Notes: generated by a model from the letters alone, not told the origin. DNA of 64,000 nucleotides from Candidatus Nomurabacteria bacterium (GCA_020632095.1 JACKGF010000001.1:198549-262548), one strand, 5' to 3'. Positions 36,713 through 52,106 are shown, numbered from the stretch's first letter. Made by a program: numbers and translations.

Positions 36713-37315
36713 ATGGTGAATATGAAAAATAATGACGACGATTTCGAAACTGAAATCACCAACGAGGACGGAAATGATATTGAATTACCCGAGTTAGAGG
36801 ATATTGAGGAACGCACGGAGGATAAAATTAAGAAATTAAGACAAAAATTATCCGAGTGTGAAGAGGAGAAAAAAGCGATTTTGGATGAGTCACAACGAAC
36901 GAAAGCTGACTTCCTAAACGCCCGCAAACGACTAGAAGACGAAAGGGCACGCGACCGCATCCGTTACCGCAAGCAACACGTTGAAGAGTTACTACCACTG
37001 TGTGACAGTTTTCAGATGGCCATGAGTAATAAAGAAGCCTGGGAGAAGGCGGACCCAGCTTGGCGGGTCGGAATTGAAGGAATTCACAGTCAATTACTGA
37101 ATATACTCAATTCTTATGGAGTAAAGGCGGTATCGCCAGAAGGCGAGGTTTTCAGCCCTCATCAACACGAAGCGATTGGCACCGAAGACGTCGAAGATGA
37201 AGCACTACACGACAAGATAGTTAGTGTGGTACAAAAAGGTTACGAGATGACTACGGGTGACACGACAGAAACTATCAGACCAGCCCGAGTCACCACTGGA
37301 ATAAAGATTAAGTAA
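36713..37315 (+). CDS. grpE: nucleotide exchange factor GrpE
   Basis: Acidic N-terminus, coiled coil, GrpE C-terminal domain. Sits upstream of dnaK. Confidence 0.85.
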   Translation: MVNMKNNDDDFETEITNEDGNDIELPELEDIEERTEDKIKKLRQKLSECEEEKKAILDESQRTKADFLNARKRLEDERARDRIRYRKQHVEELLPLCDSFQMAMSNKEAWEKADPAWRVGIEGIHSQLLNILNSYGVKAVSPEGEVFSPHQHEAIGTEDVEDEALHDKIVSVVQKGYEMTTGDTTETIRPARVTTGIKIK

Positions 37316-37428
37316 GTAAACGAACGTAGCGACTATTGCGAACTTATGTCCGAATTTGCGCGTTTCAAGCGCAAACTCCTGGACGAACTAGACCTGACAA
37401 TTAATTAGAAATATTGTATACAAAATAT

Positions 37429-49243: not shown

Positions 49244-49564
49244 ATGAATTTTAAGCTACCTTATAAGTTCTTCCCCAGTAAAAAAAGTAAAAAGATTGAA
49301 AGAATTAAAGGAATAATCACAATCCTTTCCAATAATCTTTATCCCTACCCATATTATGTTGAATATTTAAAACATGGATGTGGCGAAACTGTCCTGAATT
49401 TTCAAGTATCACCAGAAAAGAACGAGGGGCCGAGCGGGGACTTGATTAAGGAGTTTTGTAATCATCTGTCGAACAATATTACTGAATTGATTGGACCTGA
49501 ATCGGCTCTTGTAGAAGTAATCGAAACTGAAACATCTTCATTTAGGATAAGAGTAGTACTTTAG
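49244..49564 (+). CDS. hypothetical protein (106 aa)
   Basis: GGAGG SD. No motif recognised. Confidence 0.45.
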   Translation: MNFKLPYKFFPSKKSKKIERIKGIITILSNNLYPYPYYVEYLKHGCGETVLNFQVSPEKNEGPSGDLIKEFCNHLSNNITELIGPESALVEVIETETSSFRIRVVL

Positions 49565-49570
49565 GAGATT

Positions 49571-50038
49571 ATGATGCTAGCCTTTAAAATGATTGTTTAC
49601 AGACTTAAATTGTGGCTGGTATATACTGCAAAAAGAATCTGTACTCACAAAAAGCTTCCTTCTAAGTTTGACCGTTGTTTAGAGCTAAGAGACGAAAAAC
49701 TTAGCCCCCTCGAAATACTAATGAAGGAAATCAGATTCGTTGCGATTAATGTATATGCTAGGGACATTGAATATCTTTCAGAACTGGGACCAAAAGGTAA
49801 CAAGACCCAGTTCAAGCTAGTCGCAATCGATATCGGCATGGATGACCACGAGAAAGGACATGAATTTGTTAAGCCGTTTCGGAAATACCCACTACTGTGG
49901 CTGGTTCAAGATTTCGTCAATTATCTAACCCGACACTTTAAAGGGTTTCCTGCCCTAAAGAACGCAGTAATTAAAATCATCCCCACATACACAGGTGATG
50001 ATACGGAATCAAAGTTTGTGATTGAGGTCAGCTTTTAA
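49571..50038 (+). CDS. hypothetical protein (155 aa)
   Basis: Follows the previous ORF 6 nt downstream. A terminator follows. Confidence 0.45.
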   Translation: MMLAFKMIVYRLKLWLVYTAKRICTHKKLPSKFDRCLELRDEKLSPLEILMKEIRFVAINVYARDIEYLSELGPKGNKTQFKLVAIDIGMDDHEKGHEFVKPFRKYPLLWLVQDFVNYLTRHFKGFPALKNAVIKIIPTYTGDDTESKFVIEVSF

Positions 50039-50057: not shown

Positions 50058-50089
50058 GGCAGCTTCCTTCGGGAGGCTGTTATTTTTTT
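50058..50089 (+). terminator. rho-independent terminator with UUCG loop
   Basis: cagcttcc-ttcg-ggaggctg followed by ttattttttt. Confidence 0.6.
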
Positions 50090-50099
50090 GATTGACGAA

Positions 50100-50400
50100 A
50101 AGTGTTAAGCGATATAACCTTAGATAAACCGATGAGGTCCTGACAAGACGGAGGTATAAGGAATAGGAAGGTGGATGTGATTTTTCGTCGGAAAATTCAC
50201 ATCCACGAAGTAGGGTGGCACCGCGACCAATGCAAATTGAATCGCCCCTGCAAATGTTAAGTGAGTGAACGAGCGAAGCGACTATCACAAACTTACATCC
50301 CGATTTACTTATAACCTAAAGTAAATTGCTGGATGCAAGCGGTGCCAACCAAAGTCAAATTCGTATCTTGCTTTCACTCCAGACGGAGTGCTTTTTATTT
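50100..50400 (+). promoter_or_regulatory. T-box-like riboswitch leader (candidate Asp/Asn-type) upstream of aspS
   Basis: AAGTAGGGTGGCACCGCG at 50207-50224 matches the T-box consensus AAUUAGGGUGGNACCGCG at 17 of 18 positions. A stem-III-like hairpin (50170-50206) precedes it. CGATGAGG (K-turn-like) and ctGACAag (Asp codon plus A) lie upstream. The complement gcggtgccaacc sits at 50338-50350. An intrinsic terminator, cactcc-agac-ggagtg-cttttt, is at 50375-50397. Confidence 0.45.
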
Positions 50401-50421: not shown

Positions 50422-50697
50422 ATGGAACAACCACCAAAAAAGCCAACATCAAATTCTGAACAAAATCCAGAAAAAATTACTTATCAAACACTCGACGAAA
50501 TAAAGGCATCTATTTTTACTGCAGATAATGGTGGAGCAATAATTGTTGGAGACGAGCTTTTTTACACTACAACAAGCAAAAATACTACTGAACGATTGAG
50601 AGGACTAGAAAATAACGGATTCACAGTAGAAATTACAACCCGACAAGCAGAAGAGGGTGTGCACGACGTTTACGATATAAGAATTACTAAAAACTAA
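50422..50697 (+). CDS. small hypothetical protein (92 aa) between the leader and aspS
   Basis: Starts at MEQPPKK. The track's 50326 start would lie inside the leader RNA. Confidence 0.4.
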   Translation: MEQPPKKPTSNSEQNPEKITYQTLDEIKASIFTADNGGAIIVGDELFYTTTSKNTTERLRGLENNGFTVEITTRQAEEGVHDVYDIRITKN

Positions 50698-50702
50698 CCA
50701 CT

Positions 50703-52106
50703 ATGAAACGAACACTTATTGCTGAACTAAGCAAACATAAAGGAGAGACGGTTGAAATTAAAGGCTGGATTAATGTAGCGCGTGACCAAGGTAAGATGGC
50801 TTTCTTTGATATCCGCGATCGCAGTGGGTTTGTCCAGGGAGTGGTTTTTGGTAAGCCAGAGGTGTTAGAAATTGCCAAAACTCTTAAGTCAGAATTTGTA
50901 GTTGCTATCACAGGGGTAGTTAACGAGCGACCAGCCAAAATGATAAAGGAAGGAGTAGTAAATGGCGACATTGAACTTGAAATTACCGCCATCGAAATTC
51001 TTAACGCCGCTGACACTCCACCTTACGACCTAACCGAAGACACCAGTGGAATTGATGAGGAAGTGCGACTTAAGCATCGTTCCCTTGACCTACGAACCGA
51101 ACGAATGCAACGCAACATGCGCGTTCGTAGCGAGTTTGTGCGTCGTTGTCGGAACTACCTAATGGAAAGAGATTTCTGTGAAATTGAAACTCCACTCCTA
51201 ACTGAGTCGACTCCGGAAGGTTCACGTGACTTCGTCGTACCAAGTCGACATAACCCTGGAAAATTCTACGCTCTACCTCAATCACCCCAGCAATACAAAC
51301 AACTCCTGATGAACGCAGGCTTTGAACGCTACGTACAGATTGCTCGGGCTATTCGTGACGAAGACCTAAGAGCCGACCGCGGTTATGAACACACTCAAGT
51401 CGACGTCGAAATGTCCTTTGTTGAGCGTGATGATGTAATGAACATGATCGAGGGTATGATTATCGAAACGGTCGAGAGTATGGGACATACCATAAAACAG
51501 AAACCTTTCCCTCGAGTAACTTATGCAGAATCAATGGCCAAATACGGTGCTGATAAATTCGACATGCGAACAGAAGAGGATAAAGAAAATAAAGTTCTGG
51601 CTTATGCTTGGGTAATTGATTTTCCTTTCTTTGAAAAAACCGACAAAGGCACTTGGACTTTCACCCACAATCCATTCTCCATGCCAAAAGCAGAATTTTT
51701 GGAAGATTTAATGAAAGGTGAAAATATTGAGAATATTTTAACTTCTCAATACGATCTGGTTTGCAACGGTTACGAAGCTGGTGGTGGCAGTATTCGCGCG
51801 CACAAACCAGAAATAATCAAAGCGGTATACAAAGTGATGGGTAACACTGATGAAGAAACGGAAGAAAAAGTTGGTCATATGTTAGAGGCTTTTCGTTACG
51901 GCACACCACCACATGGTGGTATCGCGCTTGGTGTAGAAAGGAATGTAATGAACCTAACTGGCGAAGAATCACTGCGTGAAGTTCAAGCTTTCCCAATGAC
52001 CCGCAAAGGCCAAACAGCTGTTATGACCGCACCTAAGCCACTTACCATAGACCAACTCCTAGAACTAGGATTATCAGTTAGAAAACAAGATAATGACAAA
52101 AATTAA
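50703..52106 (+). CDS. aspS: aspartyl-tRNA synthetase, compact form without GAD insertion
   Basis: QSPQQYKQLLM and RDEDLRADR motifs. N-terminal OB fold. Length 467 aa. Confidence 0.9.
   Translation: MKRTLIAELSKHKGETVEIKGWINVARDQGKMAFFDIRDRSGFVQGVVFGKPEVLEIAKTLKSEFVVAITGVVNERPAKMIKEGVVNGDIELEITAIEILNAADTPPYDLTEDTSGIDEEVRLKHRSLDLRTERMQRNMRVRSEFVRRCRNYLMERDFCEIETPLLTESTPEGSRDFVVPSRHNPGKFYALPQSPQQYKQLLMNAGFERYVQIARAIRDEDLRADRGYEHTQVDVEMSFVERDDVMNMIEGMIIETVESMGHTIKQKPFPRVTYAESMAKYGADKFDMRTEEDKENKVLAYAWVIDFPFFEKTDKGTWTFTHNPFSMPKAEFLEDLMKGENIENILTSQYDLVCNGYEAGGGSIRAHKPEIIKAVYKVMGNTDEETEEKVGHMLEAFRYGTPPHGGIALGVERNVMNLTGEESLREVQAFPMTRKGQTAVMTAPKPLTIDQLLELGLSVRKQDNDKN

Follow-up and report, generated by a model that had tools for sequence, protein, structure and literature searches.

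A minimal T-box leader ahead of aspS in a Candidatus Nomurabacteria bacterium, with a preserved tRNA-Asp-type sensor and a remodelled terminator region

T-box riboswitches are commonly seen as belonging for the most part to Firmicutes and Actinobacteria, and older surveys recorded them in Firmicutes, Actinobacteria, Chloroflexi, Deinococcus-Thermus and a few Proteobacteria (PMC2494555), while the TBDB database is composed of Rfam-model hits and a class II search limited to Actinobacteria (PMC7778990). In a full-text literature search, no paper was found tying T-box riboswitches to the Candidate Phyla Radiation (CPR), Patescibacteria, Parcubacteria or Saccharibacteria. Here, we describe a T-box leader upstream of aspS, which encodes a class II aspartyl-tRNA synthetase (AspRS), in a 64,000-nt stretch of DNA from a Candidatus Nomurabacteria bacterium (GCA_020632095.1, JACKGF010000001.1:198549-262548), hereafter the window, in which positions are counted from the first letter. 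The individual element is of a known kind, a T-box, and 50128-50249 on the plus strand is certainly a genuine T-box sensor belonging to an aspS family of CPR bacteria; the class itself, defined by an ultrashort Stem I, a Stem II that is often absent, transcriptional output, CPR hosts and Asp/Asn specifiers, appears to be undescribed. The joint explanation that best fits our data, and which we consider quite probable, is that the tRNA-Asp sensor is intact, its coupling to the terminator is broken, and the control of aspS is most likely weakened or lost.

The closest described systems are the class I transcriptional T-boxes covered by the Rfam model RF00230, such as the tyrS and glyQS leaders of B. 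subtilis. With these the window shares a Stem I kink-turn (K-turn), a specifier read by the anticodon, a Stem III flanked by RRRxG and AA motifs, a 14-nt T-box with a UGGN bulge, and a two-helix antiterminator; its relatives, but not the window, add to this an intrinsic terminator built in part from the antiterminator 3' strand. However, the specifier internal loop, the AG bulge and the distal T-loop platform are all missing from Stem I of the window, and the codon lies throughout the family in a terminal loop of 5-9 nt. Moreover, Stem II and Stem IIA/B are missing from the window and its nearest relatives, the terminator of the window shares no strand with its antiterminator, and the window and the 15 relatives tested fall below the RF00230 gathering score.

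The actinobacterial class II T-boxes of ileS resemble the CPR leaders in having a truncated Stem I that lacks the elbow platform and keeps the K-turn. Short and ultrashort Stem I ileS leaders are translational and need Stem II plus Stem IIA/B, according to Sherwood et al. (2015) as summarized in PMC7583486; once Stem I is truncated, hardly any tRNA is bound unless Stem II is present, a domain that is then essential (PMC7583486). Some CPR relatives (L005, L013, L083, L035, L063 and L098) also present Stem II and IIA/B-like elements. The CPR leaders differ in that they end in U-tailed terminator hairpins rather than Shine-Dalgarno sequestrators, many of them (including the window) have no Stem II, and their specificity is Asp/Asn instead of Ile. 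In turn, glyQS-type T-boxes, which also lack Stem II, have a short unstructured linker between Stem I and Stem III, as the window does, but their Stem I is full-length and carries the platform, whereas the window has neither platform nor Stem II.

Within the 28-nt Stem I of the window (Table 1), CGAUGAGG at 50130-50137, previously noted as K-turn-like, is the 5' half of a K-turn of the GA type at the base of the stem (ACC-GAU-GA ... GA-GGU), whose C-stem covaries in the family. The 7-nt terminal loop, CUGACAA, holds a codon whose amino acid fits the regulated gene, with a purine after it (GAC-A, 50142-45), in agreement with the Asp-compatible specifier proposed earlier. The reading made from sequence alone had failed to fold Stem I convincingly by eye because the stem is ultrashort, with only a K-turn, 3 bp and the terminal loop. 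In this 28-nt Stem I, with its codon in the terminal loop, no distal platform (AG bulge and distal loop with interdigitated T-loops) was found. Furthermore, only 15 nt separate Stem I from Stem III, so that there is no room for the Stem II (S-turn) or the Stem IIA/B pseudoknot of class II leaders, and neither is present in the window; the linker ends in GGAAG, an RRRxG motif as defined in PMC7583486. The stable hairpin reported before the T-box is Stem III, which is bordered by purines on both sides (GGAAG 5', GAA 3') and whose helix 3 covaries in the family.

The T-box itself, which had been located at 50207-50224 as a consensus match, contains the exact core AGGGUGGCACCGCG at 50212-25 and supplies the 5' strand of an antiterminator whose 7-nt bulge is UGGN-ACC. 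This core (AGGGTGGCACCGCG, 50212-50225) is the sole exact match in the 64 kb, and two matches were obtained when up to two mismatches were allowed, vs 0.37 expected. Helices A1 and A2 of the antiterminator are paired at 8/8 positions in the window and at 99% across 50 homologues. The proposed compatibility of UGGC with a G73 discriminator also held, using a relative: tRNA-Asp(GUC) of L111 ends in ...GGUGC-G, giving a G73 complementary to the C of UGGC, and its anticodon is the expected GUC. The tRNA-Asp of the window's own genome is not encoded inside the 64-kb window.

RF00230 was the only Rfam family with E <= 1 in the whole window (window-wide E 0.069; E = 8.6e-4 in an 801-nt scan), and the T-box, the bulge and both antiterminator helices fit this model well; however, its alignment drops 71 Stem I positions, and the score of 26.4 bits stays below the gathering score of 93, leaving the Rfam scan of the window with no gathering-level match. 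The missing significant match is uninformative as a refutation, because none of the 15 homologous relatives tested, all clear homologues, reaches this threshold either.

The evidence that carries the assignment comes from 160 related aspS loci, upstream of most of which GGGTGGCACCGCG was detected by a simple motif search. Counting only the 145 Patescibacteria/Paceibacteria loci with at least 150 nt upstream, a T-box motif precedes aspS in 100. A covariance model (R2) was built from 20 relatives, with the window left out of the seed; its match to the window was full-length, at 60.0 bits (E 1.5e-14), with no other match in the 64 kb, and it found one leader per related locus. In a 50-sequence family alignment, 93.7% of cells were paired and compensatory changes were observed in 13/19 pairs, whereas 0/500 shuffles reached any of these measures and slid controls showed 43-55% pairing; this alignment was fitted to R2, and hence is biased to the structure, but the table of Stem I variants and the raw sequences agree with it.

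Compensatory changes occur in Stem I helices 1 and 2, and 82 loci yielded 60 distinct Stem I variants, all equally short, with a constant K-turn and the loop NNGAY-A. The Stem I helix varies yet stays paired (GCAG/CUGC, GCGG/CCGC, CCAG/CUGG, ACCC/GGGU, GUGG/CCAC, GCU/AGC), and the GUC/GAC helix of the window is consistent with this variation. The loop codons are GAC, GAU or AAC followed by A: GAC occurs in most leaders, GAU in L020, L022, L084, L109 and L149, and AAC (Asn) in at least seven aspS leaders (L011, L027, L036, L047, L098, L104 and L108). The codon suggests that lineages with AAC sense tRNA-Asn, as expected if their AspRS is non-discriminating and feeds GatCAB. In Clostridium acetobutylicum, a T-box ahead of gatCAB and a non-discriminating aspS reportedly responds to tRNA-Asn (Saad and colleagues, 2012); the AAC leaders resemble that system, and the window, carrying GAC, differs from it.

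The leaders of the family follow a common order, starting with a promoter-like TTGAC[G/T]-N17-TAANCT, the K-turn, a helix of 3-5 bp and a terminal loop of 5-9 nt with GAC-A, and proceeding to a linker or a Stem II with IIA/B-like element, Stem III, the T-box/antiterminator, a long terminator and a U-rich tail. Some relatives show AGUAGA and a CCGGG...CCCGA element, whereas L081, L086, L087, L093, L104, L150 and L001 (closest to the window) have only a purine-rich linker of 13-30 nt, as does the window. The canonical terminator of the relatives re-uses the antiterminator 3' strand AAUCGCCCCUGCA, with folding energies of -18.6 to -37.5 kcal/mol.

It is in the terminator region (50250-50400) that the window departs from its family. 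The leader is collinear with the relatives up to ...AAUCGCCCCUGCAAAUGU (50257), then diverges, and homology resumes at GGAGUGCUUUUU (50385-50396), which MAFFT aligned on the terminator 3' strand of the relatives, GGGGCGAUUUUU, L001 having GGAGUGAUUAAU there; likewise, the alignment sets GGAGTGCTTTTT of the window on GGGGCGATTTTT of the relatives, with GGAGTGATTAAT as the L001 equivalent. Between these points, the former terminator loop now holds about 108 nt, among them an 81-nt structured repeat (hereafter the module, with hairpins H1 and H2) and a 12-nt T-box complement, and a further 13 nt follow. The order of these insertion events is one that we infer.

The sequence-only reading had remarked on a T-box complement about 110 nt downstream with no U-run, and this complement is real: GCGGTGCCAACC at 50339-50350 forms 11/12 pairs with the T-box, and apart from the T-box antisense no other 12-mer of this kind occurs in the window, with 0.13 expected by chance. 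The duplex energy of -23.9 kcal/mol compares with -12.1 +/- 2.9 in shuffles and was reached by 2/2000 of them. No downstream T-box complement was found in any other leader (approximately 100 homologues), and among these the window alone combines a split terminator with a complement of its T-box in cis. The separate hairpin described as an atypical terminator is also present (50375-50390 plus tail), the relatives being canonical and the coupling being lost in the window; it is followed by CTTTTTATTT, and its 3' strand and U-run are homologous to the terminator 3' strand of the relatives. No terminator sharing a strand with the antiterminator was found in the window, which has no complement of AAUCGCCCCUGCA, while the relatives do have one.

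Three candidates for the missing function were tried and rejected. A canonical terminator is not available in the window, where the best duplex (50238-58/50360-94) amounts to only -5.4 kcal/mol. The distal helix is not a plausible terminator, being followed by AAAGUCAAAUUCG with no U-run, unlike the tails of the relatives. Finally, CUGGAUGCAAG (50329-39) as a second antiterminator would pair with the terminator 5' flank at -13.4 kcal/mol, but this breaks H2 of the module, and the partition function showed no population gain for that pairing.

Considering what is known of T-boxes together with this anatomy, in the family the GAC in the K-turn-anchored ultrashort Stem I loop would pair with the GUC anticodon. 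Pairing of the bulge UGGC in the T-box with the uncharged G73-CCA end would stabilize the antiterminator, and the polymerase would then pass a terminator that otherwise forms from the antiterminator 3' strand. In the window, the last step would be broken by the insertion of about 108 nt and by the 13 nt that give the 3' strand and U-run a new local partner, and the cis complement at 50339-50350 would be the only element left competing with the antiterminator. The sensor would probably still bind tRNA-Asp, toggling between the antiterminator and the distal-complement helix, and the hairpin at 50375-50400 would be independent of it, acting as a leaky constitutive attenuator before a small open reading frame (ORF) and aspS.

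Folding calculations bear on this scheme. In minimum-free-energy folds of the nascent RNA, the antiterminator is kept up to 50338 and is replaced by the T-box/distal helix once 50339-50350 emerges. Of the antiterminator and terminator alternatives that the earlier reading wished to see folded, the antiterminator has an energy of -14.3 kcal/mol, and the partition function assigns the hairpin 50375-50390 a pairing probability of about 0.99 whether the antiterminator is free or locked, the locked state being one with the antiterminator fixed and the bulge held open to mimic bound tRNA. Neither coupling of the sensor to the hairpin nor coupling of the sensor to the small-ORF initiation region was found at equilibrium, and for the terminator the modelling shows a lack of such coupling. 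Since the hairpin forms with the antiterminator locked or not, tRNA control would be weakened or lost, or would operate through an unproven relay.

For the regulatory outcome, we infer that regulation is weaker or gone, the attenuator being leaky and separate from the sensor, whose toggling would have no consequence; we hold this account tentatively, at a little short of an even chance. T-box control of aspS is dispensable in the clade, because the close relatives L003, L092, L095 and L097 have lost the T-box outright, their aspS lying 9-19 nt after trpS. Several points weigh against the account. The 11/12 complement of the T-box is unlikely by chance and resembles an adaptation for which a dead switch has no need. 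The 5' half of H1 (50263-50277) can pair with 50360-50379, including the terminator 5' strand, at -18.0 kcal/mol, which makes a relay possible when the T-box/distal helix is open. Moreover, aspS is presumably essential and lies behind the hairpin, so that read-through must occur somehow. Equilibrium folding ignores co-transcriptional kinetics, bound tRNA and proteins, and no relative has the architecture of the window, so that covariation cannot test it. Simple decay is challenged chiefly by the appearance of two new, specific complementarities (T-box/distal and CACUCC/GGAGUG) in one short, insertion-bearing stretch; this is not decisive, because a template-switch mutation could make such inverted repeats without selection.

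The alternative that survives best is a rewired but fully functional relay switch, which we consider doubtful. Without uncharged tRNA-Asp, 50339-50350 would strip the T-box from the antiterminator, the module would compact, and 50375-50390 would terminate transcription; with uncharged tRNA, the antiterminator would be locked and the distal strand free, and the 5' half of H1 would take 50360-50379, sequestering CACUC and preventing termination. The strength of the T-box/distal duplex, the nascent fold that switches exactly when 50339-50350 emerges, the intact sensor and the position of aspS behind the hairpin all speak for it. In addition, the H1/50360-50379 pairing is reached by only 47/2000 shuffles and crosses the T-box/distal helix, so that it is allowed in the tRNA-bound state only, and the energy advantage of the terminator falls from 7.3 kcal/mol with the antiterminator free to 3.1 kcal/mol when it is locked. 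However, with the antiterminator locked the terminator still forms at about 0.99 and the relay pairing makes up about 1% of the ensemble (0.01), H1 is a local hairpin formed long before its competitor is transcribed, a comparable downstream complement to the module 5' end is not significant in most other copies of the module (p = 0.07 to 0.53; only L002 at 0.009), and the layout was seen in no second species. Kinetic or factor-dependent coupling takes the probability left over by the readings considered here.

Quite improbable, in our view, is translational control, in which the state of the T-box would gate the start of the small ORF and act on aspS by translational coupling, as in the actinobacterial ileS T-boxes. 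The ultrashort Stem I does resemble the translational class (PMC7583486), AAUUCGUA (50358-65) can pair with UACGAAUU (50414-21) directly 5' of the AUG, and the stop codon of the small ORF lies 5 nt before the ATG of aspS. Nevertheless, the sequestrator helix of class II leaders was not found in the window: no Shine-Dalgarno sequence is there to be sequestered, the unpaired probability from -22 to -1 is nearly equal in the two sensor states (0.47 vs 0.56) and is unchanged from +1 to +15, and all relatives use terminators. Chance resemblance to the T-box consensus with no riboswitch behind it, to which the RF00230 score far under 93 and the window-wide E of only 0.069 might point, is negligible and already refuted by the R2 score, the presence of the element at the same locus in 100 of 145 relatives, the covarying structure and the specifier that matches the gene.

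A comparable remodelling has been described in the staphylococcal glyS 'stem Sa' (PMC9177973), which, like the insertion of the window, is a lineage-specific structured insertion in the antiterminator/terminator domain of an aminoacyl-tRNA synthetase T-box, and both are overlooked by standard tools. Stem Sa differs in that it measures 25-50 nt, lies in the antiterminator and leaves the terminator coupled (PMC9177973), whereas the insertion of the window is approximately 120 nt long, contains a repeat present elsewhere in the genome and separates the strands of the terminator.

A conserved aspS T-box in about 100 CPR genomes widens the known range of the mechanism. The Rfam threshold misses the family in the window and in 15/15 relatives tested, and in practice annotation pipelines need a dedicated model. 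A mechanistic question is also raised, as the literature demands Stem II for a truncated Stem I, yet many CPR leaders are without both platform and Stem II. The copy in the window is in turn a natural experiment, either in riboswitch death by a terminator-splitting insertion or in the rebuilding of an expression platform from new complements. The stronger proposition, that an undescribed minimal transcriptional CPR class exists and that the window has also been rewired to a new relay topology, is possible but, taken as a whole, unlikely. If true, a minimal class would sense tRNA-Asp (tRNA-Asn in some lineages) by a K-turn-anchored anticodon-like loop and the discriminator domain alone, doing without both the Stem I platform and Stem II, one or the other of which current structural work holds to be indispensable, and a cis-encoded mimic of the tRNA 3' end, GCGGUGCCAACC, would serve as an anti-antiterminator relaying through the inserted module to a separate terminator.

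Table 1. Features of the aspS leader and its surroundings, with copies of the 81-nt module in related loci (window positions unless a locus is given).
Feature	Position	Strand	Description
Intrinsic terminator of trpS and small-ORF unit	50058..50089	+	10-bp hairpin then U7; 5' boundary of the aspS leader unit
Putative leader promoter	50092..50120	+	TTGACG, 17-nt spacer, TAACCT; ends 7 nt 5' of Stem I
Ultrashort Stem I	50128..50155	+	ACC-GAU-GA-G-GUC[CUGACAA]GAC-G-GA-GGU; 28 nt; K-turn, 3-bp helix, 7-nt terminal specifier loop
Specifier codon GAC (Asp)	50142..50144	+	Followed by a conserved A; upstream of aspS
Linker	50156..50170	+	15 nt, purine-rich; 3' end GGAAG (RRRxG)
Stem III	50171..50206	+	10 + 5 bp, -22.2 kcal/mol, then GAA
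T-box sequence GAAGUAGGGUGGCACCGCGA	50207..50226	+	Bulge UGGCACC 50216-50222; UGGC would pair with the tRNA 3' end G73-C-C-A
Antiterminator	50212..50249	+	A1 50212-15/50246-49; A2 50223-26/50242-45; cap hairpin 50228-39; -14.3 kcal/mol
GCAAAUGU	50250..50257	+	Left over from the ancestral terminator (upper 5' strand); identical to L098, 1 base from L004
81-nt structured repeat (module)	50256..50337	+	R1 95.5 bits; in the former terminator loop; hairpins H1 and H2
GCGGUGCCAACC	50339..50350	+	Cis complement of the T-box; 11/12 pairs with 50213-50224; duplex -23.9 kcal/mol
UAUCUUGC	50364..50371	+	Probably left over from the ancestral terminator (upper 3' strand); weak evidence, by-eye comparison with ...AUAUUUGC AGGGGCG of the relatives
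13-nt insertion UUUCACUCCAGAC	50372..50384	+	New local 5' strand CACUCC and loop; perfect pairing with the old 3' strand GGAGUG
Stand-alone terminator-like hairpin	50375..50400	+	CACUCC-AGAC-GGAGUG (50375-50390), -8.5 kcal/mol, plus tail CUUUUUAUUU
Small ORF	50422..50697	+	91 aa; NCBI: hypothetical protein, Candidatus Nomurabacteria bacterium
aspS	50703..52106	+	Class II aspartyl-tRNA synthetase, 467 aa; Pfam PF00152 and PF01336; regulated gene
Module copy	L035 3726-3806		
Module copy	L002 3754-3837		
Module copy	L098 2702-2803		
Module copy	L063 3705-3786		
Module copy, partial	L040 90-178		

A second copy of the module is present in the window at 37307-37387 (+), in the grpE-dnaK spacer, and a dedicated model (R1) found copies in other genomes only inside aspS T-box leaders. 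These lie at the tip of Stem II in L035/L122, L063 and L098 and between IIA/B and Stem III in L002/L085, and the partial copy of L040 is 3' of the terminator. The grpE-dnaK spacers of six relatives measure 13-43 nt and contain no module; because of this, the dnaK copy of the window is taken as a lineage-specific insertion. The H1 sequence, AAGU-GA-GUAA[ACGAGCGUAGCGACUA]UUAC-GA-ACUU, folds into a long irregular hairpin that carries G-A motifs in tandem, and the H2 hairpin covaries; compensatory changes were observed in 19/24 pairs across 7 copies, a small set that was partly used to define the structure. Over 50256-50337, Rfam gave no plus-strand match at E <= 10. Possible roles for the module are those of a mobile element, an expansion segment and a protein-binding site. 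It was also considered as a riboswitch-like P1 switch with a conserved downstream complement, an option rejected because that complement is not significant in most copies. Similarly, the GAC in the H1 loop was rejected as a second specifier: where GAC has become GAU in L098, the facing strand has also gone from C to U, replacing a C-C mismatch by U-U, and a G-C occupies this position in L063 (by eye, from the alignment and the L063 sequence), which points to a structural contact rather than a codon.

Regarding the small ORF between the leader and aspS, its presence had been announced correctly, but with 92 instead of 91 aa. Its codon-usage score (0.447) is comparable to that of the real genes of the window (0.451 +/- 0.124), vs approximately -0.55 in the other two frames. 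No homologue was found in a database of 5.8 billion protein clusters (self-match only), and there was neither a Pfam match nor a relative among the 160 loci; moreover, the ORF is unlike the neighbouring small ORFs and unlike an unrelated ORF at the same position in L013. The ORF probably represents a real gene that is specific to the species and transcribed together with aspS. In other relatives, too, the T-box is separated from aspS by unrelated genes, at distances of 356-1093 nt.

The source is a CPR bacterium, with an AspRS 82-87% identical to proteins of metagenome-assembled genomes labelled Nomurabacteria, Kaiserbacteria, Paceibacteria and Patescibacteria. The 666 nt around the leader are identical in four independent assemblies, and the arrangement is hence not an assembly artefact; natural within-species variation was sought among these four assemblies and none was found. 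Upstream of the leader lie trpS, two unannotated ORFs and the strong terminator at 50058-50089. The putative leader promoter is proposed from its position and conservation, as TTGAC[G/T]-N17-TA(A/C)NCT occurs at an equal distance from the K-turn in L001, L081, L084, L086, L087, L090, L093, L104 and L150; a generic sigma-70 scan made no call at 50092-50120. The genes leuS, alaS and trpS are also within the window (Pfam), and no T-box was found ahead of any of them using Pfam gene calls, the Rfam scan and R2.

Some further features were observed among the relatives. The terminator tails of L081, L084, L086-L089, L098, L104, L082 and L001 are interrupted U-tracts (AUUAUUGUUUC, AUUGUCGUUUC, AUUAAUCGUUUC) rather than a clean U-run, perhaps because the RNA polymerase of CPR bacteria has other requirements for termination. 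The terminator 5'-strand motif (UCCUGCR, UCUACA or UCCUAUG) recurs as a third copy 8-12 nt 3' of the terminator of relatives, including L013 (3596-3603), L006, L083, L084, L150, L090, L004, L002 and L001, and is missing from the window; by eye, this copy covaries with the terminator of each genome, and it could pair with the terminator 3' strand in read-through transcripts.

In the antiterminator, the A2 pair by the T-box bulge (50223/50245) is G-C in the clade of the window (CGCCCC) and G-U in a distant clade (CGUCCC) formed by L030 and others at 54-57% AspRS identity, with 25 G-C vs 23 G-U sequences. A terminal G-U wobble of A2 has been described as the steric sensor of aminoacylation (PMC7583486), and the 50223/50245 pair might correspond to it. 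In about 20 related loci (L003, L092, L095, L097, L012, L014, L054-L056 and others), aspS lies 8-33 nt after trpS with no T-box; trpS-aspS synteny is widespread, and the T-box leader is repeatedly lost, or gained in between.

Elsewhere in the window, about 1 kb upstream of leuS (1386-2385) is partly AT-rich and has no ORF longer than 88 aa; Rfam, a tRNA scan, R1 and R2 gave no significant match in it, R1 showing a chance-level match at 1389-1467 (E 4.8). The two ORFs between trpS and the aspS leader (49244-49564 and 49571-50038) would encode 106 and 155 aa, have no Pfam match and show codon-usage scores of 0.15 and 0.25, below those of typical genes; the trpS-aspS interval seems to gather lineage-specific small genes.

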